Positions 29,291-62,790 of a DNA stretch of 64,000 bases are shown in pieces. The notes under the pieces are model-generated. The model saw only the letters and a program-made list of their open reading frames with translations, had not been told where the DNA came from and searched no databases. Numbering within the stretch: position 1 is the stretch's first letter; each line of letters starts with the position of its first letter. The stretch covers positions 10,862 through 74,861 of the forward strand of contig CAYUDN010000001.1 of NCBI GenBank assembly GCA_964443675.1, in the 5' to 3' direction. The stretch comes from an uncultured Candidatus Saccharibacteria bacterium (GTDB lineage Bacteria; Patescibacteriota; Minisyncoccia; Phycocordibacterales; UBA5272). The position numbers were made by a program, and so were the translations under genes.

Positions 29291-29448
29291 AGGGTGGGTA
29301 TTAGAGATTAGACGTTAGACGTTAGACTTTAGAAAATGCAAGATAGAGGCGGCCGCGAAGCGGCTGCCCTCTGTATTTATCTGTTGCCTGAGAGCGCAGG
29401 GATCTGTAGTCCATACTCTAGTGTCTGTCTCTGTGCTATACTTTTTGT
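29291..29448. repeat. Member R1 of the long-hairpin intergenic repeat family (core gaggcggccgc-gaa-gcggctgccctc)
   Basis: Tandem tagacgt motifs on the left and atctgt/gtctgt motifs on the right around a GC-rich GAA-loop hairpin. Related copies are listed below. Confidence 0.55.
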
Positions 29449-29892
29449 ATGCTTATGTATTTAACACCAAGTAATATTATTGTCGCTGCTTTAGTTGCTT
29501 TTGCATATGGTGCACTTTGGTATTCACCAATTCTTTTTATTAACGTGTGGATGAAAGGGGAGGGTATGACAAAAGAAACACTCCCTAAGAGAACGCCTCT
29601 TTATCTTTTGCAAACTAACCTCTATTCTCTTATTTCTTTAGGGGCAATGGCTTCTGTGCTTGCCATTATTTTTGATCTTCTTGCAGTCCCTACGCTTAAA
29701 GCCGCTATTGCTCTTGCGCTTTTGCTTGGTTTTGGTCTTGTGGTAACGACACGTTTTATGGATATGATATATACCGTACATGGCAAGCATTATGAAGCTC
29801 GTTCGCAGATACGCTTCCTCCTCTCTTCTTCCTATTATCTTGGAACTATTGTAGTGCTCACCGTGGTGCTTTTTGCGATGGCTCACAGGTAA
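29449..29892 (+). CDS. Hypothetical membrane protein (147 aa, four TM)
   Basis: Hydrophobicity pattern only. Confidence 0.45.
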   Translation: MLMYLTPSNIIVAALVAFAYGALWYSPILFINVWMKGEGMTKETLPKRTPLYLLQTNLYSLISLGAMASVLAIIFDLLAVPTLKAAIALALLLGFGLVVTTRFMDMIYTVHGKHYEARSQIRFLLSSSYYLGTIVVLTVVLFAMAHR

Positions 29893-29976
29893 TTGTGTAA
29901 AGGGTATATTACTATAGGTTTTTTGGGTATATTGGTATACACTGATAGATATTGAGAGATAATTTCTGTACGTCTA

Positions 29977-30357
29977 ATGAAAGAAATGACACCAAAAAGA
30001 ATTTTGATTATTGAAGATGAAAAGCCGTTAGCGCACGCGCTTTCACTTAAGCTTTCTCATGAAGGTTTTGAAGTTGTTACTGCACTTACTGGAGATGAAG
30101 GGGTGGAGTATCTTTCAAAAGAAAAGTTTGATATGGTGCTCACTGATCTTATTATTCCAGGAGCTGACGGATTCAAGGTACTTGAGTTGATTAAAGAGAA
30201 AAAGATTAAGACACACGTTATTGTTATTACTAATCTTAATCAAGAAGAAGATAAGAAGAGGGTCTTTGATCTTGGTGCAGCAGAGTTTTTTGTGAAGTCG
30301 AATACGCCAATATCCTCTATTGTTGAAAGTGTGAAGAAAAAAATACAATCTTCCTGA
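29977..30357 (+). CDS. Single-domain response regulator (CheY-like receiver)
   Basis: 'ILIIEDEKPLA...DMVLTDLIIPGADGF...' gives the receiver-domain D-D-K pattern. It lies immediately upstream of pilB. Confidence 0.8.
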   Translation: MKEMTPKRILIIEDEKPLAHALSLKLSHEGFEVVTALTGDEGVEYLSKEKFDMVLTDLIIPGADGFKVLELIKEKKIKTHVIVITNLNQEEDKKRVFDLGAAEFFVKSNTPISSIVESVKKKIQSS

Positions 30358-30386
30358 TATACTAAAGGTATCGTTATTTATTTTGT

Positions 30387-32072
30387 ATGAACATTGACAC
30401 TAACAACATAAAAGAAATACTCATCACTGGTAACTACATTAGTGAGGACGACGCAAAGAAAGCAGAAGATATTGCTAAGAAAAGTAATATTAGTTTTATT
30501 GAAGCACTTCGTCGTGATGGTATTGTAAATAGTGACATTGTTGGCCAGGCAACAGCAGAGAGCTTTGGTGTTCCTTATGCTGATCTTAACTCTGCTTCTA
30601 TTAGTGCAGACCAGGTGCGTAAGATTGACGAAGATACTGCTAAGAAACTACGAGTGGTTCTTTTTAACGAAGAGGAAGAAGGGTCAGTTACAGTAACTAC
30701 TGATAACCCAAAACAAGAAGGTCTTGCTAAGGAACTCGGAGCTATTTTTAAAGGAAAGAAAGTAGTGATTACCTATTCTTTGTCTGAAGACATTGATGCA
30801 TTTTTTATTTTTTATGAAAAACCACTTGATACAAGATTTTCAAAAATTATCGAAGAGTCAAGTGATCAAGTTGCTCCAGAAATTCTCGAAGAGATTTTTG
30901 ATGATGCGATTACCTACAAAGCTTCTGATGTGCACTTCGAACCACAAGCACGAGTAGTGGTAATTAGATTCCGTGTTGATGGAGTGCTTCATGAAGCAGG
31001 AAGATTACCAAAAGAATACTATGAGAATGTTCTTAATCGTATCAAAGTTAAGAGTGCTCTTCGTATTGATGAGCACTACGCGGCACAAGATGGTTCGCTT
31101 CATTACGATAGCAAACGAAATGGTGTGGCAGTTGATATGCGTACTTCCATTGTACCTATCGTGGAAGGGGAGAAGGTGGTACTTCGTATTCTTGGTTCGT
31201 ATGTACAAGGACTTACTTTTAATGATCTTGGGTTAACGCCTAAGAATCAAGAGCTTCTTCGAGAAGCTGCGGACAAACCTTTTGGTATGATCCTTGTCGT
31301 TGGACCAACAGGGTCTGGTAAGACCACGACACTGTATTCTTTGCTTAAGATGCTTAATACACCAGATACGAATATTACTACTATTGAAGATCCTGTGGAG
31401 TATAAGGTGCAAGGACTTAATCAAATACAGGTAACACAAGCTACAGGGTTAACGTTTGCGCGAGGACTTCGTGCAATTGTGCGACAAGACCCAGATATTA
31501 TTCTTGTGGGAGAGATTCGCGACTTAGAGACCGTAGAAATATCAGTGAATGCTGCGCTCACTGGACACTTACTTCTTTCTACTTTTCATGCTAATGATGC
31601 TGCAACTGCTATTCCTCGTCTTCTTGATATGGGGACAGAGCCATTTCTTCTTGCGTCAACAATGAATCTTATTATTGCACAACGTCTTGTGCGTAAAATT
31701 TGTGATCACTGTAAAGTAAGTAGCATCAAAAAACCTTCTGACTTCGACACTCCACAATTAAAAGGAGTTATGAAGTTTTTGCCATCCAAAAATCTTACTC
31801 TGTATGAAGGGAAGAAATGCGAGGCATGCGGATTCACTGGGTATAAAGGGAGAACTTCTATTTATGAAGTAATTAAGATCACACCAACTATGCAAGATCT
31901 TATAGTAAAGCGCCCCTCTGCTCAAGAAATTTGGAAACTTGCACGAAAGGAAGGTGCGTTGTCGGTGTTTGAAGATGGTCTCGAAAAAGTAAAGAACGGT
32001 CTTACGACTATTGATGAACTAGTGCGTATTGCACCACCACCAGATAAGCTTTTTGATGAAAAAGAAAAATAA
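30387..32072 (+). CDS. pilB: Type IV pilus assembly ATPase PilB (GspE family)
   Basis: Walker A 'VGPTGSGKTTT', 'ILVGEIRD' and a tetracysteine motif (CDHC...CEAC). Confidence 0.9.
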   Translation: MNIDTNNIKEILITGNYISEDDAKKAEDIAKKSNISFIEALRRDGIVNSDIVGQATAESFGVPYADLNSASISADQVRKIDEDTAKKLRVVLFNEEEEGSVTVTTDNPKQEGLAKELGAIFKGKKVVITYSLSEDIDAFFIFYEKPLDTRFSKIIEESSDQVAPEILEEIFDDAITYKASDVHFEPQARVVVIRFRVDGVLHEAGRLPKEYYENVLNRIKVKSALRIDEHYAAQDGSLHYDSKRNGVAVDMRTSIVPIVEGEKVVLRILGSYVQGLTFNDLGLTPKNQELLREAADKPFGMILVVGPTGSGKTTTLYSLLKMLNTPDTNITTIEDPVEYKVQGLNQIQVTQATGLTFARGLRAIVRQDPDIILVGEIRDLETVEISVNAALTGHLLLSTFHANDAATAIPRLLDMGTEPFLLASTMNLIIAQRLVRKICDHCKVSSIKKPSDFDTPQLKGVMKFLPSKNLTLYEGKKCEACGFTGYKGRTSIYEVIKITPTMQDLIVKRPSAQEIWKLARKEGALSVFEDGLEKVKNGLTTIDELVRIAPPPDKLFDEKEK

Positions 32073-32074
32073 AT

Positions 32075-33496
32075 ATGCCATCCGCTGCTCTTACAAAAAA
32101 GAATAGTGCTAAAGCAACCAAGAAAGTAAGTAAGACTGCCAAGGAAGTACAAGAAGAAAAGAAAGAAGAAAATGTAGCAACACCAAAGACGACACCTAAA
32201 GAAGTGGCGGTATTACAAAGCGTCACACAAGAACACAAAGAAAAAGAGAATGCACAAGAAAAGAAATCATTCTTTTCTTTTTTGAAACGCTACAAAGAGA
32301 CAAAAGAAAAGAAAGAGGATACAAAAGAACCTAACAACTCCCAAGGTGTCACTTCTTTAGAATCAAAAGTTTCTATTTCTGAGCCTGTGCGCGCAACTCC
32401 TGCACCTGAGAGAAAGATTGCAGCACGAGAACACCTATCGACATTTGGTCTTGGGAAAGAAAGAGATCAGTTCATTGAAAACTTAAGTATGCTTGTGCTT
32501 TCTGGAATGACTATTGTTGATGCGCTCACCTCTATCATTAAGCAGACAAAAAATGGAGGAATGAAAAAAATTCTTGAAAGAATGCTTCTTGAGATTGAGT
32601 CTGGATCGACGGTGTGGAAAGCTTTTCTTGCAACAGACCTTTTTAAGGGGTATACTATTTCGCTTATTCGTCTTGGGGAAGAATCTGGTAATTTTGCTGA
32701 GAACTTAAAAGTTGTCGCGCTTGAAGAGGAAAAGGATCGTGAGTTTAAGTCAAAGATTCGTTCAGCACTGATGTATCCAGTGTTTGTGCTTACTCTTACA
32801 GCGGTTGTCGGTATTGGTATTTCTTGGTTTATTCTCCCTAAACTTGCTAAGATTTTTGAGGATCTTAAGCTTACTCTCCCTTTTATTACACGAGTACTTA
32901 TTGGCTTTGGAATGTTTCTTAATAAGCACGGACTTATTGCTGTCCCACTTGGGGTTTTTGTGGTAGGGCTTATCGGGTATGTAGTATTTTTCTACAAAAA
33001 AACAAAATATGTAGGAGAAGTTATTATTTTTTCTATTCCAGGTATTAAGACACTTCTTATGGAGGTTGAGGTTGCTAGGTTCGGGTATCTTCTTGGAACA
33101 TTGCTTGATGCAGGGCTTCCTGTGACAAAAGCTATTGATTCTTTGGCGGGTGCGTCAGATGTGGTACGTTACAAGAGGTTTTATCTTCATTTACGGGAAT
33201 CAATCGAGCTTGGTAACTCTTTTGAAAAAAGTTTTGCGAGTTACAAAAAAATAAACGTACTTATCCCCGAACCAATACAGCAACTCATCGTATCAGGAGA
33301 AAAGTCAGGGAATTTGAACAAGACACTTGTGAAGGTTGGACAAGTACTTGAAGCAAAATCAGACACTACTACGAAAAACCTTACTATTATCATGGAGCCG
33401 ATACTTCTTGTGATTGTGTGGGCAGGTGTGGTATCAGTTGCGTTTGCGGTGATCTTGCCAATTTATAGTTTGGTTGGAGGACTTAATAATGTATAA
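32075..33496 (+). CDS. pilC: Type IV pilus platform protein PilC (GspF family) with about 110-aa Lys/Glu-rich N-terminal extension
   Basis: Two GspF repeats and three TM segments. Residues 1 to about 110 are low-complexity K/E-rich. Confidence 0.85.
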   Translation: MPSAALTKKNSAKATKKVSKTAKEVQEEKKEENVATPKTTPKEVAVLQSVTQEHKEKENAQEKKSFFSFLKRYKETKEKKEDTKEPNNSQGVTSLESKVSISEPVRATPAPERKIAAREHLSTFGLGKERDQFIENLSMLVLSGMTIVDALTSIIKQTKNGGMKKILERMLLEIESGSTVWKAFLATDLFKGYTISLIRLGEESGNFAENLKVVALEEEKDREFKSKIRSALMYPVFVLTLTAVVGIGISWFILPKLAKIFEDLKLTLPFITRVLIGFGMFLNKHGLIAVPLGVFVVGLIGYVVFFYKKTKYVGEVIIFSIPGIKTLLMEVEVARFGYLLGTLLDAGLPVTKAIDSLAGASDVVRYKRFYLHLRESIELGNSFEKSFASYKKINVLIPEPIQQLIVSGEKSGNLNKTLVKVGQVLEAKSDTTTKNLTIIMEPILLVIVWAGVVSVAFAVILPIYSLVGGLNNV

Positions 33497-33956
33497 CTTT
33501 TTTTTGAAAATTACTAAGAGTAGGTCAGTACGAGGGTTCACTCTTCAGGAGATTCTTCTTTCTGTTGCGCTTGTTGCTATTATCGCAGGCATGTCACTGC
33601 CAATGTATCGCACTTTTATTACAAGAGATGATTTAGATACAGCAGTTACTTCATTTGCATACGCCTCACGTCGGGCACAGGCACTTTCATTTTCTTCAGA
33701 TGGGGATACTGGATGGGGTGTACATGTGGGGGTTGGAGGTATACTACTCTTTAAGGGTGCAAGTTATGTCGGAAGAGATGCATCATTTGATGAGGTGACT
33801 TCTATACCAACTACAATTACCATCTCAGGACTTACTGATATTACTTTTGCAAAAGTAACTGGTGAGCCATACGCGACAGGAACAGTGAGCTTTACTTCAC
33901 AAGATAATGAAACACGCACTGCAACAATTAATGAAAAAGGAACAATTGACTACTAG
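33489..33956 (+). CDS. Prepilin-type pseudopilin / minor pilin
   Basis: 'RGFTLQEILLSVALVAIIAGMSLPMY' is a class III signal with G|FTLxE. The start ATG at 33489 overlaps the pilC stop by 8 nt. Confidence 0.7.
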   Translation: MYNFFLKITKSRSVRGFTLQEILLSVALVAIIAGMSLPMYRTFITRDDLDTAVTSFAYASRRAQALSFSSDGDTGWGVHVGVGGILLFKGASYVGRDASFDEVTSIPTTITISGLTDITFAKVTGEPYATGTVSFTSQDNETRTATINEKGTIDY

Positions 33957-36228
33957 ATTAAGGAGAGGGTTTTTTCTAGTAGAGATGCTTCTTACGAGTG
34001 CTATTTTTGTGCTATTTTTGGCTGGATTTTCTGGAGCACTGTACTATGGGCTTCAGTCGTCTTCTCTAGCCGGGGAAAGAGGGAGAGCAATGTCGTATGC
34101 AGAAGAGGGGCAGGAAGCAGTAAGAAGTATTCGTAATGCGAACTTCGCTAACCTGGTCGATGGAACGTATGGATTGTCGTACTCATCAGGAGCTTGGAGT
34201 CTTACAGGGAGTCAAGATACCTCTGGTATTTTTACTAGAACCGTTACCGTAGCGAGTGTGGGGTCTAACAAGAAAAATGTTACCGTTACTGTAACGTGGA
34301 GACAAACACCTTCACGAACAGGAAGTGTGAGTATGGAATCTCGTTTTACTAATTGGAAAACTATTCCTAATCTTGGTGTTGGTATTACTGTCAATGCAAT
34401 TGTGATTAATCATGGTCTCAATAAAGTCGCTACTGATTTTGCTCCTTATAAAGTGGGAACTACTACAGTAACTTTGGCGACATCAACACTTTTTGCTCCT
34501 GGAACATACACGGTTACCGCCGTAACAGATCCAGATTACACAACAACATTTAGTGGTGACTGTAATGCAAGTGGTCAGATCACTGTTGCTACTGGAAGTG
34601 CTAAGTTATGTACTATTACTCATGAGGAGAAGTTGGCCTATGTCACTCTTACTAATACTGTGATTAATCACGGAGGTAATAAAACCGTTACGGACTTTGC
34701 TCCTTACAAAGTAGGTTCGACAACAGTGATACTTAATACTCCTACACCAATTAATTCAGGAAGCTATCAGATTACAGAAGCAACAAGCTCTAACTACACT
34801 CTTACGTTTACAGGGGATTGTTTTACTAACGGAACTATTACTCTTACTTCTAATTCAACAAAGTCATGTGCCCTTACTAATGAAGAAAATATACAAGGTG
34901 GAGGAGGAAGTCAGTCTCTTGCAGGTATTACTATTTATGGTGATGGGTCTAATGTGCCAAAGTATCGTACCTTTAATCAGAATACTAATCAATTTAGTGC
35001 CGAGACAGGAACCTTTACTGCAACCGTTGGCCCAACATGGATTATTCGTGCTTCTCCAACACAACATATTGCACTTGCTGGGTATTACGACAACTCAGCA
35101 ACGTTAACCATTATGTGTTTTGATGGAACTAACTGGACTAAAGAGTTCGCTGCGCAGTCCGGAGGTGTTGGTAATAGGCATCGTTTTGATATTGCATTCG
35201 AGAAGACTTCTGGTAAAGCTATGGTGGTATTCAGTAAAGGAAGTTATGTGTTTGGTGACTTAGGCTACAGAACTAAAACGGGGGGCACAGGGTGTGGTCA
35301 AGGGTGGTCAAATGAAAGTATTCTTGCTCCGACAAGAACTTCTAACGATATTATGTATGTAAAACTTGCACAAGATCGTCGGATTGGGTCTAATCTTTTG
35401 GCGCTTACGTGGGTGGATACAAGTGAGGATATTTCTGCGCGTATATGGGACGGAAGTTCGTGGATGAATGAACCAACCGCAGTTACAGATAATAATCTTG
35501 AGCGAATTACCTCCTCCCATGATATAGAGAATATGGATATAGAGTATGAGTCTCTTTCTGGGGATCTTATGTTGGTGTGGTCTAATGCACTTGGTAACAA
35601 TGGAACAAACGGAGTTCGTTATCGAACATGTACAGGCGGTATTGCGGCGTGTACATGGAATCCGGTAACAACACCACCTTCTTTCCTTGATGATGCAACA
35701 AGCCTAGATATTTCCGCTAATCCAGCTTCTGATGAGATAGTATTTGCATCTATCGGAAACGCAGGCGGTGACCTTCAACTTGGTTATTGGAGTGGTAACG
35801 CATGGACAGATACACCAAATGCAGACACTTCATGCACGGTACCGTACACCGCTTCTAAGTTAGTAACAACGGGATGGCTTATTCTTGGAAGCACTACTCG
35901 TTCTGTTGTTGTGTATTCTGATCTTAATTCAACCAATATTAACTGGTATACCGGTAACGGTGGAGTGTTTACACGTCAATCAGACTTTACTCCTTCAACA
36001 CCGATAGCAAGTCCAAGAGGGTATATGGATATCTATATGAACCCAAGAGATTACGCACAGCTAATGTATTACACTTCGGATAACAATAGTGACTTTTTTG
36101 CGAAACGTCTCATGATGACAGGTACCTCTACACTCACCTGGACTAATTCAGACGGCGGCCCTCCTCTTGAAACAACTCTCCCACAAATCATCTCGTCTCC
36201 TTTTTCGTTTACTTTTTGGCAACAGTAA
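33907..36228 (+). CDS. Large prepilin-type protein (773 aa), candidate tip adhesin with tandem about 85-aa repeats
   Basis: N-terminal 'RRGFFLVEMLLTSAIFVLFLAGF'. Two tandem repeats 'VINHG.NK..TDFAPYKVG.TTV.L.T...GDC...G.IT...S.K.C..T.EE' lie at about nt 34400-34890. The start is ambiguous between 33907 and 33931; both overlap the previous gene. Confidence 0.7.
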   Translation: MKHALQQLMKKEQLTTRLRRGFFLVEMLLTSAIFVLFLAGFSGALYYGLQSSSLAGERGRAMSYAEEGQEAVRSIRNANFANLVDGTYGLSYSSGAWSLTGSQDTSGIFTRTVTVASVGSNKKNVTVTVTWRQTPSRTGSVSMESRFTNWKTIPNLGVGITVNAIVINHGLNKVATDFAPYKVGTTTVTLATSTLFAPGTYTVTAVTDPDYTTTFSGDCNASGQITVATGSAKLCTITHEEKLAYVTLTNTVINHGGNKTVTDFAPYKVGSTTVILNTPTPINSGSYQITEATSSNYTLTFTGDCFTNGTITLTSNSTKSCALTNEENIQGGGGSQSLAGITIYGDGSNVPKYRTFNQNTNQFSAETGTFTATVGPTWIIRASPTQHIALAGYYDNSATLTIMCFDGTNWTKEFAAQSGGVGNRHRFDIAFEKTSGKAMVVFSKGSYVFGDLGYRTKTGGTGCGQGWSNESILAPTRTSNDIMYVKLAQDRRIGSNLLALTWVDTSEDISARIWDGSSWMNEPTAVTDNNLERITSSHDIENMDIEYESLSGDLMLVWSNALGNNGTNGVRYRTCTGGIAACTWNPVTTPPSFLDDATSLDISANPASDEIVFASIGNAGGDLQLGYWSGNAWTDTPNADTSCTVPYTASKLVTTGWLILGSTTRSVVVYSDLNSTNINWYTGNGGVFTRQSDFTPSTPIASPRGYMDIYMNPRDYAQLMYYTSDNNSDFFAKRLMMTGTSTLTWTNSDGGPPLETTLPQIISSPFSFTFWQQ

Positions 36229-36232
36229 TTCT

Positions 36233-36748: not shown

Positions 36749-36757
36749 TATACTAAT

Positions 36758-37171
36758 ATGAATCTACGTCCTCATGTACAACAACTTACTCGTGGTTACA
36801 TTGCCATGCTCTCCGTTATCCTCATTGCTGCAATAGGTACTGTGGTAATGATGTCTGTCGTTGCTTCTGGTGTTGATTCTGGTAAAACTAATCTTTCTCT
36901 TCAGCTTTCTGGCACAGCAAGGATGATGGCAACTTCTTGTGTTGAAGAAGCGCTTCAAGAGATCATTGATACCGGCACTACTTCTAAAAGGGGCATGTTG
37001 ACACTTGGCTCTAATTCATGTGATTACACAATCAGCACCTCTTCTGGGCAAACAATTCTTGTTAAAGCAACAGGCACAGCAATGACGGTAGTCTCAAAAA
37101 TCCTTGTAATTATAGCTTCTACCACCCCCTCTCTTACGTTATCCTCATGGCAAGAGGTTTCTGACTTCTAA
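36758..37171 (+). CDS. Minor pilin-like protein (PilX-like), tentative
   Basis: N-terminal 'QQLTRGYIAMLSVILIAAIGTVVMM' hydrophobic segment resembling the PilX/minor-pilin leader. No canonical GFxxxE motif. Confidence 0.45.
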   Translation: MNLRPHVQQLTRGYIAMLSVILIAAIGTVVMMSVVASGVDSGKTNLSLQLSGTARMMATSCVEEALQEIIDTGTTSKRGMLTLGSNSCDYTISTSSGQTILVKATGTAMTVVSKILVIIASTTPSLTLSSWQEVSDF

Positions 37172-38609: not shown

Positions 38610-38658
38610 AAGAAAAGATGACGACACCTACGGTGTCGTCATCTTTCTTTTGTTTTTC
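38610..38658. terminator. Bidirectional intrinsic terminator (14-bp stem aagatgacgacacc-tac-ggtgtcgtcatctt)
   Basis: Lies between the convergent histidine-kinase and HTH-murA genes, with T-runs on both sides. Confidence 0.6.
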
Positions 38659-41799: not shown

Positions 41800-42168
41800 A
41801 TGAGAAAAGTGTATACTTTCTGTATGAAAACAACACCCTTTCTTGAATATGTGCTTTATGATATATTCGGTGAACAAGAGCCAATCACTGCAAGGTATAT
41901 GATGGGCGCACACATGCTTTACTATGAAGGGAAGCCTTTTGCGATTGTTGAAAATGATGAACTCTACTTCAAAGGATCAAAAGAGGTAGCAGGGTGGTAT
42001 CTATATCGTGGAAGCAAACAGTTCACCTACACTAAGGAGGGAAAGGAGGCACATCTTTATTACTTTTTTGTTCCACCTGAAGTGTATGAAGAAAGAGAGA
42101 GTCGTGAGGAGTGGTTAGAGGTAGCACTTAGTGTTTCAAAGAAGAAACAAGTAAAAAGCAATAAGTAA
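41800..42168 (+). CDS. TfoX N-terminal-domain-like protein (tentative)
   Basis: 'ARYMMGAHMLYYEGKPFAIVENDELYFKGSKE' resembles the TfoX_N (Sxy) domain pattern. Weak call. Confidence 0.35.
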   Translation: MRKVYTFCMKTTPFLEYVLYDIFGEQEPITARYMMGAHMLYYEGKPFAIVENDELYFKGSKEVAGWYLYRGSKQFTYTKEGKEAHLYYFFVPPEVYEERESREEWLEVALSVSKKKQVKSNK

Positions 42169-42312
42169 AAAGTAACAAGGAAGAGATATAGAGCGCAGAC
42201 AACAGATAACAGACAATGGGCACATACAATACCCATTACTTATTGCTAGTTGCTGTTTGCTCGCGTTTTCTCCGCGTTTGTTCTGCAACTGTCCGCGTCC
42301 AGTCTGTGTCTG
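42169..42312. repeat. Member R2 of the intergenic hairpin repeat family (gcagacaacagataacagacaa ... tccgcgt/ctgtccgcgtcc motifs)
   Basis: Shares the acagataacagac arm with R4 and R6, and the 'ttctgc...tccgcgt...ctgtccgcgtcc' segment with R3 (45110-45163). Confidence 0.5.
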
Positions 42313-45109: not shown

Positions 45110-45163
45110 AGTGGGTTTACTTTCTGCGATCTTCCGCGTCTATTCCGCATCTGTCCGCGTCCC
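45110..45163. repeat. Member R3 (short) of the intergenic repeat family
   Basis: cttccgcgtctattccgcatctgtccgcgtcc is near-identical in motif content to the right arm of R2. Confidence 0.45.
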
Positions 45164-52986: not shown

Positions 52987-53155
52987 TGTGACTCTCAGTA
53001 TATAGATTCATAATGAGTTGCGCAACTTTTTGGAATACAATGATGGTCACTGTCTTGTGCGATACGGTGCGCGACGCCTACGGCGTCGCGCACACCTCTT
53101 TACTCATCATCTTTTGCACCCCATTTTTCATATATATTCATGCTACACTTACTGT

Positions 53156-54621: not shown

Positions 54622-54668
54622 AAAACAAAGAGCGGGACGCCGAAGGCGTCCCGCTCTTATCTTATTTG
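54622..54668. terminator. Bidirectional intrinsic terminator (aagagcgggacgcc-gaa-ggcgtcccgctctt)
   Basis: 14-bp GC stem with a GAA loop and T-runs on both strands. It lies between convergent genes. Confidence 0.6.
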
Positions 54669-55779: not shown

Positions 55780-56012
55780 AAAAATAATAATGCTCCAACA
55801 CGAAAGTGGGGGAGCTGCCACATCGGTCTGGTTTCTTACGAGCACTATCACTAAGCGGATAGATCTTTCGAAAGGGTTACGCCAGAACGGTATCTATTAA
55901 ATAGATGGTTGCTATTCTACAATACAAACGTTTCTAATGCAAGAATTGTGAGTAGTAGCTGGAGGGTAAAAAGTAGAAAGAGATGCGAAGGAGGAAGAGA
56001 AGAGGAGAACGG

Positions 56013-56041
56013 TGAGGAACTGAAAAAGCCACAACAGGTGT
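56013..56041. terminator. Bidirectional terminator hairpin aaagccaca-acag-gtgtggcttt
   Basis: T-run on the plus strand (TTTTG) and T-run on the minus strand. It likely ends the minus-strand transcript of the 56170-56358 gene. Confidence 0.5.
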
Positions 56042-56169
56042 GGCTTTTGTCAGGATATGACCTGACCCCGGCTAAGCGGGCTTACACAATCGAGCAACAA
56101 AGATCGGTTACTCAAAACTGTGCGTACTGATGTCTTACTTCTTCAGTATCCTATGGGGTGGCATGCTGT

Positions 56170-56358
56170 TTAGTTGATGCCGTACTCCTTCAGAAGTTGG
56201 TTGATTTCCTCGTCGTCATTGTATCCAATATCCTCTTTGATAAGAGGGTCCAGATACGTATCGAACGAGAACGGTTGTCCAGGTGGAATTTCTTCCACTC
56301 TGGTCACTACTCCCCGGAAGGGGAATGCCCTCATGTGGGCGTCGACTGATATGATCAT
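56170..56358 (-). CDS. Small acidic hypothetical protein (62 aa)
   Basis: An AAAGGA SD sits 5 nt before the ATG. Protein MIISVDAHMRAFPFRGVVTRVEEIPPGQPFSFDTYLDPLIKEDIGYNDDEEINQLLKEYGIN. A promoter-like TATACT and a 5' UTR hairpin gtgagac/gtctcac lie upstream. Confidence 0.4.
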   Translation of the reverse strand: MIISVDAHMRAFPFRGVVTRVEEIPPGQPFSFDTYLDPLIKEDIGYNDDEEINQLLKEYGIN

Positions 56359-56693
56359 CAGAAGTATCCTTTCAAAAAAAGTTGAAGAACAGTGTGAGAC
56401 CCTTCTGTCTCACAGGTATTAGTATAGCACGGGTAGTGTGATTGTGGAAGGTGAAAGGTGGGCCACTTCGCTTGTAGAGAGTGGAAGGGAGGGAAGAATG
56501 AAGAGTGAAAAGGAAAACAAAAAACCGCGGCGACTCCCGTCGTAGCGGCTTCCTGATCAAGTTGTCTTTTTTTGACTTCGTACACACGCTGTGTACCAAG
56601 AGTCTTGATCGCGGAGTTGCGAGCTCCTACTCTTGTGACCTTCTCAGGTCTCTAGATCTTCAACTCAAGGGTTTCTCCTTGTTGAGGTTTTTC

Positions 56694-56861
56694 TTACCGT
56701 TGCCAGGGGGCAGCGGCTTGAGGGCGGCGGGGGATGAACTTCTGCCGGATGGTCTTCGACCGCGCAGTGTGGGTCTTCCGCAGCGCATCGAAGCGTTCCC
56801 GCTTCTTACGCCGCTCCTCTTCTGCGAAGAACTCGCAGAAAGTCTTGTCCCAGTCGGTCAA
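56694..56861 (-). CDS. Small Arg/Lys-rich protein (55 aa), TTG start, translationally coupled to the upstream gene
   Basis: The upstream gene's TAA stop is embedded in an SD (cTAAGGAGAacca), followed by TTG. Frame: (M)TDWDKTFCEFFAEEERRKKRERFDALRKTHTARSKTIRQKFIPRRPQAAAPWQR. G+C-rich. Not in the ORF track. Confidence 0.35.
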   Translation of the reverse strand: MTDWDKTFCEFFAEEERRKKRERFDALRKTHTARSKTIRQKFIPRRPQAAAPWQR

Positions 56862-56870
56862 TGGTTCTCC

Positions 56871-57476
56871 TTAGATGAGTTGTCCCATGAAGTAGAGAGG
56901 GGTCTTGTCGACCGCGCGGAATTGCGAGGAGCGAATGTCCTTATAGCGAGGCATCCGCGGGTCACGCTTTTGCATGCTCTTGTTGTGGTGACCCTTGCAC
57001 TCCAGGACTGTGGTTTGTTCACCGGTATTCGACCGGTAAACCAGCACAGGTTGTCGCTTGCCGATACCTGTGCGACGGTTGAGGTGCAAGCGGCGGCTAC
57101 CACTCCGGTCCTTGTCCTTCTCATTGAAGGTCTCCCGCTCGAACGAACCGGCAGTAGGCTGCCACAAGTCGTGGTCGAAGTGCCACAGTTGCTCGCGGAT
57201 CTTGTTGATCCGCTTGCGCTCTTCGGCGCGGGCGTGCGCGGCAGCGATCTTCTGGTTGATCTCGGCGCGACGCGCCTCGACCAGGGCCTGGTTGTCGGCG
57301 AGCCAGTCATCCATCGAAACCACGACATCTTTCCGCTGGACACGGTAGGCGAGCCAGCCAGGGCCGGATGCCAAGGAAGTCTTCGGCGCCTTCTGTTCCA
57401 TCATCATCCCGACGAAGCCGGGAACGAAGTCGAACGAAACGCGCGGAGAAACTTGTTCCGAAAAAGTCGCAAACAT
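56871..57476 (-). CDS. Hypothetical protein (201 aa) on a G+C-rich islet
   Basis: A perfect SD (tAAGGAGGgtttgaATG) precedes the ATG. G/C-biased codons. The longer +strand ORF 56505-57491 and the nested minus-strand ORF are rejected as GC artefacts. Confidence 0.55.
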   Translation of the reverse strand: MFATFSEQVSPRVSFDFVPGFVGMMMEQKAPKTSLASGPGWLAYRVQRKDVVVSMDDWLADNQALVEARRAEINQKIAAAHARAEERKRINKIREQLWHFDHDLWQPTAGSFERETFNEKDKDRSGSRRLHLNRRTGIGKRQPVLVYRSNTGEQTTVLECKGHHNKSMQKRDPRMPRYKDIRSSQFRAVDKTPLYFMGQLI

Positions 57477-57567
57477 TCAAACCCTCCTTAGGGTATTGCG
57501 TTGAAAGAAATTTGAGAGATCTAATACAACGAACTCTTAGGTATAAGCATAGCATATCTTAGTATTT

Positions 57568-57589
57568 TTGTCAAGTATTTACTTGACAA
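57568..57589. promoter_or_regulatory. Perfect 10-bp inverted repeat operator ttgtcaagta-ttt-acttgacaa overlapping divergent -35 elements
   Basis: Each arm contains TTGACA. Candidate -10 elements are TGaTATTAT downstream on the plus strand and TATGCT on the minus strand. Confidence 0.45.
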
Positions 57590-57646
57590 AGTAATTGTGA
57601 TATTATTAGATAAATTGTTGTTTTTAACCATGAAAGGAACCCTAAA

Positions 57647-57925
57647 ATGGCGTTGTTTGATGTTGCCATTGCAGAAGAAAAGAAGATGAAGATTGTGTTG
57701 CTCGGAGAAGATGAATATTTCCCTGGCATAGCTAGACCCGGAGACAAAGTTGTTGTCGGGGGTCGTGAGACTCCTATCGAAGTATTCAAAGAGTACGCTA
57801 TGAAGAATGGGGCAATGCTCAGAGATCTGGGTGAACGACCTTATTTTTTGATGGCATACCACAATCTTGGTCTCTTTGCTCGACAAGAGTTCTTTGGTTC
57901 TCCTTTGAAACATTTTCTGAACTGA
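57647..57925 (+). CDS. Hypothetical small protein (92 aa)
   Basis: An AAAGGAA SD sits 7 nt upstream. It lies downstream of the palindromic operator and is followed by a strong terminator. Confidence 0.5.
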   Translation: MALFDVAIAEEKKMKIVLLGEDEYFPGIARPGDKVVVGGRETPIEVFKEYAMKNGAMLRDLGERPYFLMAYHNLGLFARQEFFGSPLKHFLN

Positions 57926-57954
57926 TTTCAAGGGTAGGGTTTGGTTTTTTTGGG

Positions 57955-57987
57955 GCGGCGCACGAAGTGCGCCGCTTTTGCTTTTTT
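57955..57987 (+). terminator. Rho-independent terminator (ggcggcgcac-gaa-gtgcgccgc + TTTTGCTTTTTT)
   Basis: Read directly from the sequence. Confidence 0.6.
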
Positions 57988-58004
57988 AGAGGTTTGGTAC
58001 TGTT

Positions 58005-58712
58005 GTGGAAGTTTTGTTTCGTAGTGCTATTTTGTTGCGATGGAAAAATTACTTCTTTTTTGTTACACTAGGTGCCATGATTATTTCGTATTATGGACGG
58101 CAACATTTCAAATTACAAGTAGGTGACTTAACGGTCGCGGTTAACCCTGTTTCTAAGGATGGCAAGGGCAAGGTGTCTAAGTATGGGGCTGATATTACTC
58201 TTATCACTACTAACCATCCTGACTATAACGGTAGTGAACAAACAGAACTTGGTGCGAAGGTTCCTTTTGTGGTTCGTGGTGCAGGGGAGTATGAGGTGAA
58301 TAATATTTTTATTCGTGGATTTGCTACACCTGTTACTCTTAAAGAGGGGAAGACGGAGAAAACATATCAGAATACAAGCTATGTTTTTACTATCGACGGT
58401 ATTCGGGTTACGTTCCTTGGAGCCCTTCATGAAATGTTAAAACCTGAGCATAAGGAGATTATTGATGAGACTGATGTGCTTTTTGTTCCTGTGGGACGTG
58501 ATGGGTTCCTACTTAACCCTTACGAAGCTCATAAACTCGCAGTATCACTTGAGCCGAAACTTATTATTCCTATTGATTATGATGAGCAATCACTCCCAAT
58601 CTTTTTGAAAGAAGCTGGCTCTGAAAAGGTAGAACCAGTAGAAAAGCTTACCATTAAGAAAAAAGACATTGAAGGTAAGTTAGGAGAAGTGGTGCTTTTC
58701 CATGAGATGTAG
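58005..58712 (+). CDS. Hypothetical protein (235 aa; possible metallo-hydrolase-like fold)
   Basis: The GTG at 58005 is the track start; an in-frame ATG lies at 58077. 'ADITLITTNHPDYNG' is weakly reminiscent of an MBL-fold motif. Low-confidence function. Confidence 0.4.
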   Translation: MEVLFRSAILLRWKNYFFFVTLGAMIISYYGRQHFKLQVGDLTVAVNPVSKDGKGKVSKYGADITLITTNHPDYNGSEQTELGAKVPFVVRGAGEYEVNNIFIRGFATPVTLKEGKTEKTYQNTSYVFTIDGIRVTFLGALHEMLKPEHKEIIDETDVLFVPVGRDGFLLNPYEAHKLAVSLEPKLIIPIDYDEQSLPIFLKEAGSEKVEPVEKLTIKKKDIEGKLGEVVLFHEM

Positions 58713-58881
58713 GAAAAAAGAGATAAGACGACAGGATGCAGATAACAGAGTACAGACAACAGAACACAGACAGATAGATGACAGATAAATACAAGGGCGG
58801 CCGCGAAGCGGCCGCCCTTCTGTTATCTGTAAGCGGAGTGAATCTGCTATCTGTTATCTATTCTGTTGTATACTATCTTTA
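58713..58881. repeat. Member R4 of the hairpin repeat family (acagataaatacaagggcggccgc-gaa-gcggccgcccttctgttatctgt)
   Basis: A near-perfect imperfect palindrome of about 130 bp: the left arm has cagataacagagtacagacaacagaacacagacagatagatgacagataa, and the right arm has ctgttatctgt...ctgctatctgttatct. Confidence 0.6.
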
Positions 58882-59250
58882 ATGAAACATCATATCAGGA
58901 ACTACGAGAAGTATTTTAGTGTTTATCATTATATTGAAGTGCTTAAGAAGAAGCCTGTGCATGTTCGTCATATATATGCACTTGTTATTGCAGGGACAAT
59001 TACTGCTCTTATTGCTGCTTTTATTTTGTATGTTGATTATGGTTTTTGGCATGACCGTTACATACGAACAGAAGAGGTTGAGGTGACGACCGGAGAAGAA
59101 GATCAGATGATTACTGTGCGATCTCCTAGGGAGATGATAGACGGGTTCTTTGATGAGGCAAGAAAAAAGGTAAAAACAATTCAGTTTTCTAACCCTGCAC
59201 GTGTACTTGAAGGTAAAGAGAAGTATTCAAAAGATAGTGATGTACAGTAA
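58882..59250 (+). CDS. Hypothetical single-TM protein (122 aa)
   Basis: One TM helix (IYALVIAGTITALIAAFILYV) and a charged C-terminus. Confidence 0.45.
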   Translation: MKHHIRNYEKYFSVYHYIEVLKKKPVHVRHIYALVIAGTITALIAAFILYVDYGFWHDRYIRTEEVEVTTGEEDQMITVRSPREMIDGFFDEARKKVKTIQFSNPARVLEGKEKYSKDSDVQ

Positions 59251-59340
59251 GGATAAGTAAGAGAGATCTCCCCGCATCTTTTCCTGCAAAGATTCTCTTT
59301 TTGTGCTATACTGTAGACCTATTATATTTCTTTATAATGT

Positions 59341-61812
59341 ATGGCAAAAAAGACTATCGCACAAGAAGAACCAATCAAAGAGAATAGACCGTCAGGACTT
59401 TTTCCTGTGAGCATCGCAGAAGAAATGCGTACCGCATATCTTGACTATGCAATGAGTGTGATTACTGCTCGTGCGTTACCGGATGCACGCGATGGGCTTA
59501 AGCCAGTACATCGCCGTATTCTTTTTGCGATGAACAATATGGGGCTTACTGCTGGCGCGAAGTTCCGCAAGTCTGCAACAGTGGTTGGTGAAGTACTTGG
59601 TAACTATCACCCACACGGTGATGCGTCTGTGTATGATGCTATGGTAAAAGCTGCGCAGGACTTTTCTTTTAGGTATCCTCTTGTGCTTGGTCAAGGTAAC
59701 TTCGGATCAATTGATGGTGATGGTGCTGCGGCAATGCGTTATACCGAAGCAAAAATGAGTCGTGTATCGATGGAAATGCTTCGTGATATTGAGAAAGACA
59801 CTGTACAAATGGTGCCTAACTATGATGGGCGATTACGAGAACCAAGCGTGCTCCCTACTGCGGTACCTAATCTTCTTCTTAATGGAACACTTGGTATTGC
59901 GGTTGGTATGGCAACGAATATTCCACCACATAATCTTCGCGAAGTGGTTGATGCAACAGTACACTTAATTGATAACCCTCAAGCAACCACAGAAGAACTT
60001 TGTGAATATGTGAAAGGCCCCGACTTTCCACTTGGTGGTGTTGCGTTCGGTCAATCAGATATTCGTTCTGCATACGCAACAGGTCGCGGCGGTGTAGTGG
60101 TACGAGGAGAAGCAGAAATCGTCGAAAACAAGAATGGTCAATTCCAGATTATTATTACTTCTATTCCATTCCGTGTTCTCAAAAGCAACTTGATTGAAAA
60201 TATTGCGGATCTTGTTCGCGATAAGAAGATCGAAGGGATTAAAGGCCTCCGTGATGAATCAACCAAAGATATTCGTGTTGTGATTGATCTCAAGAGTAAT
60301 ACTCAACCTCAGAAGGTACTTAATTATCTTTATAAGCATACAGAACTCGAGTCTACATTCCACTATAACCTTGTTGCGCTTGTTGACGGTGTGCCACAAA
60401 CACTTGCTCTTAAAGGTGCGCTTGAATCATTCGTAGGACACCGAAGAGAAGTGGTACGCAGGAGGACAGAGTTTGATCTTGCTCGTGCACTTGAACGTGA
60501 ACATATTCTTCTTGGTCTCAAAAAAGCACTTGATCATATTGATGAAATTATTCAGACGATTAAGAAAAGTAAGGATACTTCTGATGCACACGCGCAACTC
60601 ATGAAGAAGTTTAAGTTCTCAGAGATTCAAGCAACTGCGATCCTCGAAATGAAGCTTCAGCGTTTGGCGGGGCTTGAGCGTAAGAAGATTGAAGATGATT
60701 TGAAGGCGGTACAAGCACTCATTGCGGAACTTCAGGCTATTCTTAAGTCAGAGAAGAAGATGCTTGCTATTATCAAAGGAGAACTTAATGATATTAGGGA
60801 ACGATACGGTGATGATCGTCGTACCAAGATCGTAAAGCATAAAGCAAAGGAGTTTAATCCTGAAGACTTGATTGCAGATACTGAGCAGGTGCTTGTGTAT
60901 ACATCAGGCGGATATGTGAAGCGAACCGATCCATCAGAGTTCCGAACACAGAAGCGTGGAGGGGTTGGTGTTGTGGATCTTTCTACCAAGGAAGAAGATT
61001 TTGTTACGATGTCACTTACGACATCTACACATTCTGATCTTCTTTTCTTCACTGACAAAGGTAAGGCGTATCAGATCAAGATGTATGATCTTCCAGAAGG
61101 GAAGCGTGCAACTCGTGGTAAGAGTATTATGAACTTCCTTCAGCTTAATGAAGGAGAGCGTGTAACCTCGATACTTCCAATGCCAAAGGATGTCAAAGAA
61201 ATGAAAGGTATGTCACTTATGATGATCACTAAAGATGGCACTACGAAGAAATCATCCGCAGAAAGCTTCAAGGATGTTCGTCGTAACGGCCTTATTGCTA
61301 TTAGACTCGAAGAAGGAGATGAGCTTCTTGCTGCGCTCTTTGTGTCAGGGGATGATACTGTGATTTTGACAACAGAACATGGTCAATCGATTAGATTCCA
61401 TCATGACGACGTTCGTGAGATGGGTCGTACTGCCGCAGGGGTGATTGGCATGAAGCTCGATAAGGGTGATGTGATCGTTGCTGCAGACAAAGTCCTTCAT
61501 GGGGTGAAAGGGCAGGAACTTCTCATTATGACTGCAAATGGCTATGGTAAGAAAACTAAGCTTACCGAATATAAGACGCAGAAGCGTGGTGGGTCAGGTA
61601 TCAAGACGGTAAAGGTGACCGAGAAGACCGGTAAGCTGATTGTTGCACGTGTAGTCACTGAAGAAAGTGAAGAACTTCTCGCGGTGTCTAAGGATTCTCA
61701 AGTGATTCGTACCGAAGTGTCATCAATTCCAACTCTTGGACGTGATACTCAAGGAGTGAGAATTATGAAGTTGAGGGATGGGGACTCGGTTGCATCCTTC
61801 AATCTTCTCTAA
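59341..61812 (+). CDS. gyrA: DNA gyrase subunit A
   Basis: '[26 protein letters not shown]', active-site region '[11 protein letters not shown]', a GyrA-box-containing C-terminal beta-pinwheel. The length is 823 aa. Confidence 0.95.
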
Positions 61813-62088
61813 AGACGCAGACCACGCAGACTAAAGCAGACCACGCAGACTAAGGATGCAGACGGCAGAACACAGATAGACAGACAACAGACAGATGCAG
61901 ATTGTAGATGTTAGAAATTAAGAAGAGCGGCGCCGTAGGCGCCGCTCTCTCGTATTTCTAACATCTAAAGTCTAACATCTAAAATCTGTGTTTGTTTGTA
62001 TTCCTTCCGCGATCTGTAGCGAAGCGGTCTGTGCTCTGTTGTCTGTTTTCCACTATTACCTGCCACCTATTACCTGTATACTATCTGT
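61813..62088. repeat. Member R5 (largest) of the hairpin repeat family with tandem 20-mer (gcagaccacgcagactaa x2) and core aagagcggcgcc-gtag-gcgccgctct
   Basis: The central palindrome gatgttagaaattaag...cttaatttctaacatc has flanking acagacaacagacag and ctgtgctctgttgtctgt arms, about 275 bp in total. Confidence 0.6.
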
Positions 62089-62613
62089 ATGTCATTCCTT
62101 ACCCCAGAACATCTTGTACGTGAGTTATATTTAAAAGCAGGTGACCGAGTTGCAGATATTGGATGTGGTACTGGTGTGTATACTATGGCCCTTGCTCATA
62201 ATGTTGGTGCGATGGGTATTGTATATGCGGTTGATGTACATCGTGAAGCATTGCATACTCTTGCAGGTACACTTGATAAGCGCGGTATCGTGAACGTCGA
62301 GATGCTCTGGGCTAACGCTGAAGAAAGAATCCCAATCGATGCCTATAGTCTTGATGCGGTGGTGCTTTCTAATGTGCTTTTCCAGTTTGAGGATCCTGAT
62401 AAAGCACTGTCTCTTGTTGCGAAGCTTATCAAGCCAGAAGGAATGCTTTTGGTGGTTGATTGGAGTGATTCGCACGGCGGAATAGGCCCACATACAAAGC
62501 ATGTTATCACTGAAGATAAAGCAATTTCGCTTGTACAATCGCATGGATTTAGAATCCAGAAAAGGCTTCCTGCGGGCGATTTTCATTATGCATTCCTAGC
62601 GATAAGTTCGTAG
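62089..62613 (+). CDS. Class I SAM-dependent methyltransferase
   Basis: Motif I 'VADIGCGTGVYTMALA' and acidic motif II 'VLSNVLFQFEDPD'. Confidence 0.75.
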   Translation: MSFLTPEHLVRELYLKAGDRVADIGCGTGVYTMALAHNVGAMGIVYAVDVHREALHTLAGTLDKRGIVNVEMLWANAEERIPIDAYSLDAVVLSNVLFQFEDPDKALSLVAKLIKPEGMLLVVDWSDSHGGIGPHTKHVITEDKAISLVQSHGFRIQKRLPAGDFHYAFLAISS

Positions 62614-62790
62614 GGGTGGAGGGGTAGAATACAGATAACAGACAACAGATGACAGATGAATACACAAGGGCGGCCGCGAAGCGGCCGCCCCCTTCGTCTA
62701 TCTGTAAATGAGGCGATCTGTCATTTGTACTCTTTTAGTTATCTTTTGTCCCTAGCGTCTCTCGTATAATCTTTATATACTTTCTGGTAT
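62614..62790. repeat. Member R6 of the hairpin repeat family (acagataacagacaacagatgacagatgaatacacaagggcggccgc-gaa-gcggccgccccctt...)
   Basis: Its core hairpin is identical to that of R4. Confidence 0.6.

Follow-up and report, generated by a model that had tools for sequence, protein, structure and literature searches.

What are the long, imperfectly palindromic sequences that fill six intergenic spacers of a Patescibacteria genome, and how did they come to be there? The six intervals, R1 to R6, lie in a stretch of 64,000 nucleotides (nt), here called the window (GenBank assembly GCA_964443675.1, contig CAYUDN010000001.1, positions 10,862 to 74,861). An earlier sequence-only reading picked them out as copies of a repeat built on a common GC-rich hairpin, and proposed that they were composite terminators, repetitive extragenic palindromic (REP) elements or MITEs (miniature transposable elements with inverted repeats). 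The intervals are real as written, each being one entire intergenic spacer. Two of their features were absent from that reading: a period of seven bases, which is their defining trait, and the running of the right arm into the promoter of the next gene. On account of the seven-base period, the elements are placed here with the heptameric intergenic repeats of cyanobacteria, Xanthomonas and Beggiatoaceae (PMC4692102, PMC4679880).

Anatomy and position of the elements

The six spacers are 54, 144, 158, 169, 177 and 276 nt long, 978 nt in sum. R1, R4, R5 and R6 have the same order on the + strand, namely a stop codon, an A/G-rich left arm of YAGAnnn units, a GC hairpin with a GAA or GTA triloop, a right arm of TCTRnnn units, the sequence TATACT, and an ATG. 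The parts of each element are listed below, where copy numbers such as x3.7 are those called by Tandem Repeats Finder (TRF).

R1, 29291..29448: left array TTAGACG x3.7 (29308-29333) and a TCTG-type right arm; hairpin GAGGCGGCCGC-GAA-GCGGCTGCCCTC at 29346-29371; TATACT at 29437-29442, next ATG at 29449.
R2, 42169..42312, between the convergent TfoX_N (+) and ABC transporter (-) genes: CAGACAA x3 (42196-42216), with AAGTAAA x4.4 before it (42149-42179); a weak, 6-bp, AT-rich stem AATGGG..CCCATT at 42215-42237; right arm of TCCGCGT/TCTG units.
R3, 45110..45163, - strand, between two - strand genes: a solo arm, of a single arm type.
R4, 58713..58881: left arm of AGAnnnn heptads including CAGACAA x4.9 (58739-58772); hairpin GGGCGGCCGC-GAA-GCGGCCGCCC at 58795-58817; right side TCTGTTA TCTGTAA .. 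TCTGCTA TCTGTTA; TATACT at 58869-58874, next ATG at 58882.
R5, 61813..62053, a nested element: perfect 19-mer GCAGACCACGCAGACTAAA x1.9 (61817-61853, TRF); CAGA arrays at 61853-61900; inner specific inverted repeat 61899-61934 / 61938-61973; hairpin AGAGCGGCGCC-GTA-GGCGCCGCTCT at 61924-61948; TCTAACATCTAAAA x2.2 (61957-61987, TRF); outer TCTG arm with the family segment ATCTGTAGCGAAGCGGTCTGTG at ~62012-62033.
R6, 62614..62749: ACAGATA x3.9 (62631-62657); the same hairpin as R4 at 62668-62690; right arm TCGTCTATCTGTAAATGAGGCGATCTGTCATTTGT.

The siting first proposed, in a gene's 3' flank or between convergent genes, needs some amendment: four copies lie between co-directional + strand genes and R2 lies between convergent genes, while R3 is inside a probable - strand operon. 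The tandem repeat reported in R5 as a 20-mer exists, its unit being the 19-mer listed above. In R4 and R6 the YAGA array stops 9-11 nt ahead of the hairpin. Read from the - strand, R2 again has a CAGA/GCGGA arm, a stem and a TCTG arm, so that the order is the same on either strand. R3 has neither a hairpin nor a visible promoter in its 54 nt; it is built of 10-11-nt units (TCCGCGTCTAT), and its transcribed (-) strand reads GACGCGGACAGATGCGGAATAGACGCGGAAGATCGCAGAA, a sequence of YAGA/GCGGA type. Without exception among the copies, even in the asymmetric R3, it is the sense strand of the upstream gene's 3' untranslated region (UTR) that has the YAGA-type sequence.

Seven-base periodicity

With no motif assumed, the six elements have a lag-7 self-identity of 0.419, compared with 0.254 for shuffled sequence (z=12), and harmonics follow at lags 14 and 21 (z=6.4 and z=3.5). 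The corresponding identity in the other 27 spacers of the window is 0.289, and strong periodicity is confined to the six. The pattern CAGA-N3-CAGA-N3-CAGA is observed 8 times in the window, where 0.01 occurrences are expected. TRF calls period-7 or period-14 arrays in R1, R2, R4, R5 and R6; in R3 and the right arm of R2, both autocorrelation and TRF give 10-11-nt TCCGCGT units in place of heptads. [quoted passage not shown] Outside the elements TRF finds just trivial T-rich period-7 rows of 2.1-2.3 copies.

The unit was derived from heptad runs chosen solely by an identity of at least 4/7 at lag 7, which is blind to motif. Stacking the 45 heptads gives the logo Y-A-G-A-n-n-n, with 0.85, 1.34, 1.42 and 1.57 bits of information across positions 1-4, falling to 0.21, 0.28 and 0.44 bits across positions 5-7. 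The YAGA register is identical in 11 of the 12 arrays found in this way, and much of the variation within arrays is C versus T.

Hairpins and terminator character

The hairpin that was taken as common to the family, GGCGGCCGC-GAA-GCGGCCGCC (with GCGGC(C/T)GCC on its 3' side), is present in R1, R4 and R6 only. R5 has the stem GCGGCGCC-GTA-GGCGCCGC, R2 the weak stem listed above, and R3 none. The observation that R4 and R6 have identical cores is confirmed, since they share the same 23-nt hairpin.

In a terminator scan the stems of R4 and R5 are listed on both strands, and in R1 the sequence TCTGTATTTATCTGTT follows the stem. Having a GC stem-loop and a T-run, the cores of R1, R4 and R5 resemble intrinsic terminators, and the earlier framing as composite terminators would hold for R4 and R5 in both directions.

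The hairpin is not a hallmark of the family. Among the matches listed (one genome per species), the 21-mer stem of R1, R4 and R6 occurs in more than 113 places, in many Patescibacteria as well as in Actinomycetota, Acidobacteriota, Proteobacteria and Planctomycetota, the source genome not being among those recovered; low-GC Patescibacteria use it as an ordinary terminator between AAAAG and CTTTT. The identical 21-nt stem, GGCGGCCGCGAAGCGGCCGCC, is found at least 11 times on one 733-kb contig (CAWCTC010000001.1; L099, L105, L112, L119, L122, L128, L133, L141, L149, L151), and in many metagenome-assembled genomes (MAGs) of Patescibacteria (many among L076-L185). On one side it usually has an A-rich run (often ..ATACAAAAG) and on the other the T-rich complement of that run (CTTTTGTAT..). 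A stem found across so many phyla is a generic terminator and should not serve as a marker for the repeat family. As a separate observation, the reuse of GGCGGCCGCGAAGCGGCCGCC is far above what independent terminators should show, and C-GNA-G triloops (GAA, GTA) are the house style.

Plain hairpins elsewhere in the window provide a comparison.

38610..38658: plain GC hairpin with a TAC triloop and a T-run, no heptad arms; an ordinary terminator.
54628..54658: plain bidirectional terminator hairpin with a GAA triloop, no heptad arms.
57952..57978, + strand: plain terminator hairpin with a GAA triloop, no heptad arms.
53067-53093: GC hairpin ggtgcgcgacgcc-tac-ggcgtcgcgcac, between divergent genes, upstream of the Pth core.

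The first three agree with the suggestion that such minimal hairpins are terminators. The fourth, lying between divergent genes, is not in a 3' flank. It is upstream of the Pfam match to Pth, which starts at residue 50 of an open reading frame (ORF) called from TTG, and this context makes a 5' element more probable than a 3' terminator.

The prediction of long RNA hairpins applies to part of the family. The predicted RNA folds span the spacer in R4, R5 and R6 (-73.5, -107.3 and -64.7 kcal/mol; z -10.4, -8.7 and -5.3), whereas R1 is weaker (z -3.5), R2 is indistinguishable from shuffled sequence (z -1.3) and R3 has no hairpin. When arms were swapped between elements, cognate pairs folded with a mean of -67.3 kcal/mol and non-cognate pairs with -62.5 kcal/mol. 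R5 alone clearly favours its own partner, through the inner arms 61899-61934 / 61938-61973. Complementarity between arms is thus mostly at the level of the motif. For this reason, and because the arms are too imperfect for easy extrusion, the interpretation as long perfect hairpins or DNA cruciforms was rejected. A known RNA family was likewise rejected: among Rfam covariance models two tRNAs alone attain the gathering score in the window, and nothing credible matches the elements at E<=1 in 58600-62900.

Promoters adjoining the elements

On the right-arm side of R1, R4, R5 and R6, a TATACT -10 box stands 6-9 nt before the next ATG. This short distance implies that the mRNAs are predicted to be leaderless, or nearly so. 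The arrays stand exactly at the junction of a terminator and an apparently leaderless promoter. Two of the promoters are resolved further.

62050..62088, + strand: promoter of the methyltransferase gene; CCACTA at 62050-62055, TATACT at 62077-62082, ATG at 62089.
62750 onwards: promoter after R6, of the solute-binding-protein gene; CCCTAG at 62750, TATACT at 62776-62781, ATG at 62791.

The spacer of the methyltransferase promoter consists of CTATTAC-type heptads, called by TRF as a 14-mer array at 62052-62084. This promoter is conserved in five relatives (introduced below) and lies outside the gained element R5.

It is worth adding that at both genes the layout is closely similar, TATACT beginning 27 nt after the start of CCACTA (26 nt in R6). 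The same layout is seen in the relatives (L003 ~14620-14675; L004 ~12540-12583; L306 ~12210-12257; L307 ~13390-13430; L308 ~6955-6998), in several of which the promoter spacer is itself made of CTATTAC-type heptads.

A dispersed family of paralogues

The copies resemble each other beyond the heptad motif. The best pair is R4 and R6, with 84.6% identity over 78 nt (E 5e-20). R1 matches R4 and R6 at 84-87% over 37-38 nt, the right arm of R2 matches R3 at 86.7% over 30 nt, and the left arms of R4 and R5 match at ~80% over 44 nt. A non-periodic segment of the right arm, ATCTGTAAGCGnAGnGATCTGT (ATCTGTAAGCGnAGnGA-TCTGT), is common to R1, R4 and R6 by alignment, and by eye is also found in the outer right arm of R5. 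A profile of R1, R4 and R6 matches R5 at 61861-62054 (E 4e-7) with a large inner insertion, from which R5 is seen to be an R4-like element whose centre is occupied by another palindrome. Judged by these alignments, R1, R4, R5 and R6 are true paralogues and form a genuine dispersed repeat family.

Related copies exist elsewhere, which agrees with the earlier claim of a dispersed family as opposed to a local duplication. One Patescibacteria MAG (L154) has two related elements (E 5e-11, profile/BLAST) and another (L167) matches the left arm and hairpin of R4 at 76% over 105 nt. The relative L306 (91% GyrA identity) has, in a different spacer, an element of TTAGAnn x5 followed by a AATACAAG-GC-hairpin; it lies at the site equivalent to the plain hairpin 57952..57978, and, although asymmetric, is in the same orientation as the copies in the window. 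By tblastx, L154, L167 and L109 have no genes in common with the window.

A scan of metagenomes was made with a pattern of three CAGAYRA heptads, and what follows holds among the matches listed. These were mostly apparently eukaryotic CAGACGA repeats, cyanobacterium-like heptamer contigs and chance matches, with no contig of the source lineage. The cyanobacterium-like contigs have mixtures of CAGACAA, CAGATAA and CAACAGT-type heptads. Four GC-rich contigs (51-62%; L197, L226, L250 and L295) have clean convergent CAGAyrA arrays just upstream of start codons, laid out for example as (CAGATGA)4-5, 14-70 nt, (TCTGnnn)4-5. As these bacteria are unrelated to the host, the YAGA-type heptad palindrome also arises outside Patescibacteria. 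A viral scan of a ~3-million-contig collection gave 66 scattered matches, mostly single.

Dozens of the contigs in L186-L305 (e.g. L205, L207, L214, L223, L254) carry one common repeat, ..cctgagtagggygcacsaacgtya(CAGACGA)n..cgacatatagcgaacrtgaac..gttcacgttcgctaaaaa, which in sequence looks like a eukaryotic element resembling a short interspersed nuclear element (SINE), with a CAGACGA microsatellite.

Orthologous spacers in relatives

The host is a tiny-genome Parcubacteria-type bacterium within Patescibacteria. The closest matches to its GyrA (59341-61812) have 86-91% identity and are in MAGs, of which the few with a source name go under Candidatus Parcubacteria or Pacebacteria. The window was compared with five syntenic loci whose GyrA identity is 89-91% (L003, L004, L306, L307 and L308).

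The genes flanking R4 have orthologues in L308 (85% and 43% amino-acid identity, C-terminus and N-terminus aligned), where the spacer is 53 nt long and has no hairpin, against 169 nt in the window. The R6 spacer is 9, 66, 53 and 107 nt long in L003, L004, L308 and L307, against 177 nt in the window, and none of these four has a GC hairpin. Since the orthologous spacers are empty and without hairpin, R4 and R6 are gains of hairpin and arms. In L308 and L004 the sites of R4 and R6 are unoccupied, a presence/absence pattern that is equally expected for growth in place or for deletion.

At the R5 site, L004 has a 108-nt spacer holding a plain GTA-loop hairpin, and by comparison the centre of R5 looks like a retained ancestral terminator. 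The suggestion that plain hairpins were the ancestral unit is therefore plausible for R5; it does not extend to R4 and R6, whose orthologous sites have no hairpin.

The loci of the five relatives contain no CAGA arrays. Their spacers do contain arrays of period 7 that are built from other units: CTATTAC x3.3 (placed directly before TATACT), TATTAAC x5.1, AATAACG x4, TGAAGAA x3.4, AACTATT x3.7, GATATTA x2.7 and TAGATAT x4.9. Heptad arrays are thus a habit of the clade, in which the unit turns over.

In L306 there are in addition inverted copies of ~30 nt (CCAATTACGAATAACTAATAACGAATTACG) at 7420-7456 and 8172-8205, with AATAACG-type heptads, which flank a gene for an MBL-fold hydrolase. Because of this inversion, one terminator element has a right arm that is complementary to the following element's left arm.

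Comparison with known heptameric repeats

Heptameric simple-sequence repeats are over-represented in bacterial intergenic DNA (PMC4692102). In Xanthomonas, GGGAATC arrays form 70-75 convergent inverted pairs per genome (Rehm et al., 2015); their length differs among close relatives, and polymerase slippage has been proposed as the cause (PMC4692102). The elements described here are similar in having 7-nt tandem units, in being restricted to intergenic DNA, very often as pairs of convergent arrays on opposite strands with stem-loop or cruciform potential, and in that close relatives keep the flanking genes but differ in the length and sequence of the array. They differ in that the Xanthomonas arrays are G-rich and capable of forming quadruplexes, whereas the unit here is YAGAnnn with a free 3-nt spacer. 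They are also far more degenerate, they surround a GC terminator hairpin and extend into the promoter that follows, and their host is a small-genome Patescibacteria lineage of ~40% GC.

The same source refers to tandem heptanucleotides in Calothrix (PMC4692102). In the short tandemly repeated repetitive (STRR) sequences of Calothrix and Nostoc, which that source cites, different heptamer families are tandemly amplified in spacers too. STRR arrays are long and near-perfect and not typically two-armed palindromes on a terminator; what the window elements have in common with them is period and location only.

The third comparison is with direct repeats of the heptamer TAACTGA in Beggiatoaceae, Cyanobacteria and Bacteroidetes (MacGregor 2015, PMC4679880). 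In Bacteroidetes, relatives that share the neighbouring genes but lack the repeats have shorter spacers, and the binding of heptamers by proteins such as CspB, one protein per heptamer, has been discussed (PMC4679880). Both systems consist of intergenic heptamer arrays with a patchy phylogeny, shorter repeat-less spacers in relatives and a proposed binding protein. The TAACTGA repeats, however, run in direct orientation and sit immediately ahead of start codons, a position that suggests translational control, and their unit is virtually constant (PMC4679880), while the arrays in the window are inverted pairs around a terminator, whose unit has a variable 3-nt part.

With bidirectional intrinsic (Rho-independent) terminators the elements share the GC stem, the triloop and the A-rich and T-rich flanks; ordinary terminators lack periodic arms of 50-110 nt.

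The elements are heptameric intergenic repeats of a new sort, and among the 12 top-ranked of 770 full-text literature matches there is no report of such repeats in Patescibacteria. The unexplained bacterial preference for heptameric intergenic repeats thereby extends to another phylum. Genomes of Patescibacteria (the Candidate Phyla Radiation) are usually described as streamlined and repeat-poor, and to our knowledge their non-coding signals have barely been charted. Here a Parcubacteria-type lineage invests up to 276 nt per spacer in a structured, paralogous repeat family.

Origin of the elements

On the basis of these comparisons, we consider it slightly more likely than not that the elements are heptamer-repeat palindromes, of the STRR or Xanthomonas GGGAATC kind, which nucleated on intrinsic terminators and probably grew by slippage and palindrome-templated copying. 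The observations behind this reading are the periodicity, the confinement to intergenic DNA, the paralogy, the elements' gain in comparison with relatives, the recurrence of heptad arrays across the clade and the absence of transposon hallmarks in the window.

Arrays would grow by replication slippage of 7-nt units, filling the room between the terminator and the -10 box of the next gene. Template switching is an established mutational route at quasipalindromes. The second arm could arise by this route, the terminator palindrome letting the nascent strand copy the other arm. Whole or partial elements might then spread among spacers by recombination or gene conversion between shared hairpins and arms, with no dedicated transposase. 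In function, the GC hairpin would terminate transcription in either direction, and the arms could lengthen the potential stem, thereby catching read-through and stabilising the 3' end, as well as spacing and insulating the downstream, apparently leaderless promoter.

Several points count against this reading. The census covers a 64-kb window of one genome, encoding ~58 proteins. R4 and R6 are located where the relatives have no terminator, so that hairpin and arms came together, and such a joint arrival is more like the insertion of a unit than growth in place. The stem of R6 has no T-run and fails the terminator scan. By TRF the unit match within arrays is 70-94%, a degeneracy unlike the near-perfect arrays of active slippage, and the only two other samples found with the region are both 100% identical to it, with no copy-number polymorphism seen. 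Lastly, when heptads are compared with the consensus of their own array, the core has 12/176 mismatches and the spacer 44/132 (Fisher p=3.6e-9). This contrast is not predicted by uniform neutral decay of a slipped unit, and the non-uniform degeneracy suggests constraint on YAGA, or position-biased mutation.

The joint gain at R4 and R6, the copies at unrelated loci and the conserved YAGA core keep two other explanations alive. The first, which we regard as unlikely but deserving of serious attention, is a non-autonomous mobile element: a MITE-like terminator cassette in which the left array, the GC hairpin and the right array travel as one under a transposase encoded elsewhere, for which the inverted heptad arrays are predicted to act as multiple subterminal binding sites. 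Like MITEs, REP elements, bacterial interspersed mosaic elements (BIMEs) and Correia-type elements, the copies are small dispersed extragenic palindromes which can carry terminator or promoter activity and differ in presence between relatives. The short, hairpin-less R4 and R6 sites between orthologous flanks would be its empty sites, and it would account readily for the close identity of R4 and R6, for homologous copies at unrelated loci (L167, L154) and at a different site in L306, and for the nested appearance of R5. A classical MITE nevertheless has features that are missing here. Alignment of the copies with each other, as the sequence-only reading had advised, and with the empty orthologous sites revealed no common ends, no defined inverted termini and no target-site duplication at any copy. 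Lengths range from 54 to 276 nt, with one copy nested and R3 a solo arm; pairing between arms of different elements is about as good as pairing within an element; and the internal structure is one of 7-nt tandem units. No transposase, integrase or REP-associated tyrosine transposase (RAYT, a Y1 transposase) was identified by Pfam among the ~58 window proteins. In addition, the different 7-nt units that relatives have at like positions fit growth in place better than a single mobile sequence.

The second is that the arms are a periodic binding platform, on which an oligomeric protein reads YAGA every 7 nt, either on duplex DNA or on the RNA of the 3' UTR. We think this improbable as the main explanation. 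By analogy with omega, HutP and cold-shock proteins, such a protein might tune termination, read-through or the adjacent promoter. The ribbon-helix-helix repressor omega of pSM19035 reads heptad arrays, both direct and converging, and HutP reads (NAG-N4)3 RNA sites immediately upstream of a terminator. Set beside these, the window arrays likewise have a conserved core of 3-5 nt every 7 nt, in at least three units; the sequence of the core differs, and the arrays occupy many chromosomal spacers as opposed to one regulon. The core/spacer contrast and the common register would be explained directly by such a protein, and the discussion of CspB binding one per heptamer is in its favour (PMC4679880). 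The orientation of the YAGA strand in the upstream 3' UTR, R3 included, and the like orientation of the asymmetric L306 element also argue for it; symmetric elements, however, meet this rule automatically, and independent support comes from two cases only. The variable positions are pyrimidines, and strand-biased C-to-T mutation could explain part of the pattern. Among the ~58 window proteins Pfam gives no match to the ribbon-helix-helix, HutP, TRAP or cold-shock (Csp) families, and since the units in relatives are unrelated, one protein cannot explain the habit of the whole clade.

A bolder version, for which we would claim rather little, is that the arms are a periodic code, consisting of YAGA every 7 nt in the 3' UTR directly ahead of a terminator and its mirror on the promoter side, which would be wrapped by an oligomeric nucleic-acid-binding protein of the clade; the protein would so set read-through from the terminator into the next, leaderless gene. 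If true, the code would be a genome-wide rheostat of terminators and promoters in organisms with very few classical regulators. The elements are short and few, with clear empty sites in relatives, and thus provide a compact system in which to ask whether such repeats are a by-product of replication or regulatory.

That the elements are REP/BIME-like and mobilised by a RAYT, as was suggested at first, is very improbable. They are extragenic imperfect palindromes in several copies in 3' flanks, as this idea expects, but the palindromic core is a generic terminator stem of many phyla, there is no conserved REP head motif, and copies of 54-276 nt made of tandem heptads are unlike the 20-40-nt units found in REPIN doublets; the window proteins, as noted, include no Y1 transposase.

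Motifs like the DNA uptake sequence (DUS), accumulating as inverted pairs in terminators as in Neisseria, would suit a window that encodes PilB, PilC, pilins and a TfoX_N protein, a GTCTG that resembles part of the Neisseria DUS, and identical GC hairpins that recur many times within single Patescibacteria genomes, but this scarcely credible idea was rejected, because CAGAC and GTCTG occur 47 and 45 times against ~46 expected window-wide, and the longer motifs cluster within the elements' 978 nt and are not scattered over coding DNA.

Other features of the window

The window has a GC content of ~40%. Pfam analysis of its ~58 proteins identified a polysaccharide cluster, type IV pilus genes, a TfoX-domain protein, FtsZ/FtsA, HisRS, ribosomal protein S1 and GyrA, among others. 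The polysaccharide or O-antigen-type cluster occupies 1-21570, with glycosyltransferases, epimerases, Wzx/Wzy-like proteins, a DegT aminotransferase and an RmlC-type epimerase. Its GC content is 34-39%, below the rest of the window, and none of its spacers has a heptad element. Downstream of the Wzy_C gene, a 354-nt spacer contains a long near-perfect hairpin at 21818-21882, whose 31-nt arms are 90% complementary around a 3-nt loop, with no heptad arms.

The 3' end of the tRNA-Val gene (24833-24906, - strand) is copied nearby twice, with 100% and 80% identity over 20 nt.

24459-24478: copy of the tRNA-Val 3' end.
24661-24680: copy of the tRNA-Val 3' end.
24833-24852: the 3' end within the tRNA-Val gene.

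Beside this gene, at 24-28 kb, the GC content is 47-49% against ~40% elsewhere. ORFs near it are sparse and mostly unannotatable, apart from one Band_7 protein and one HxlR regulator. Judging from the repeats and the GC-shifted region (~23.7-28.8 kb), these look like tandem att-site remnants of DNA integrated at a tRNA gene.

In L306 the MBL-gyrA locus is immediately preceded, at 1-6832, by phage-type genes (capsid, head-tail connector, tail tube), and on gene content this segment looks like a prophage or phage-derived island in a Parcubacteria-type genome.

Upstream of the gene for ribosomal protein S1, a block ..GCCAGAACG(C/G)TATCTATTAA(A/T)TAGATGG.. is kept in the window and in relatives.

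55852-55908, window: S1-upstream block (S1 gene on the - strand).
4522-4813 of L003, 5774-6195 of L004 and 7678-7800 of L307: the same block in relatives.

The block has no Rfam match and is a candidate rpsA leader or other structured RNA; at 24062-24119 there are two occurrences of a related 22-mer, TTCGGCAGGCTTGCGCCAGAAC.

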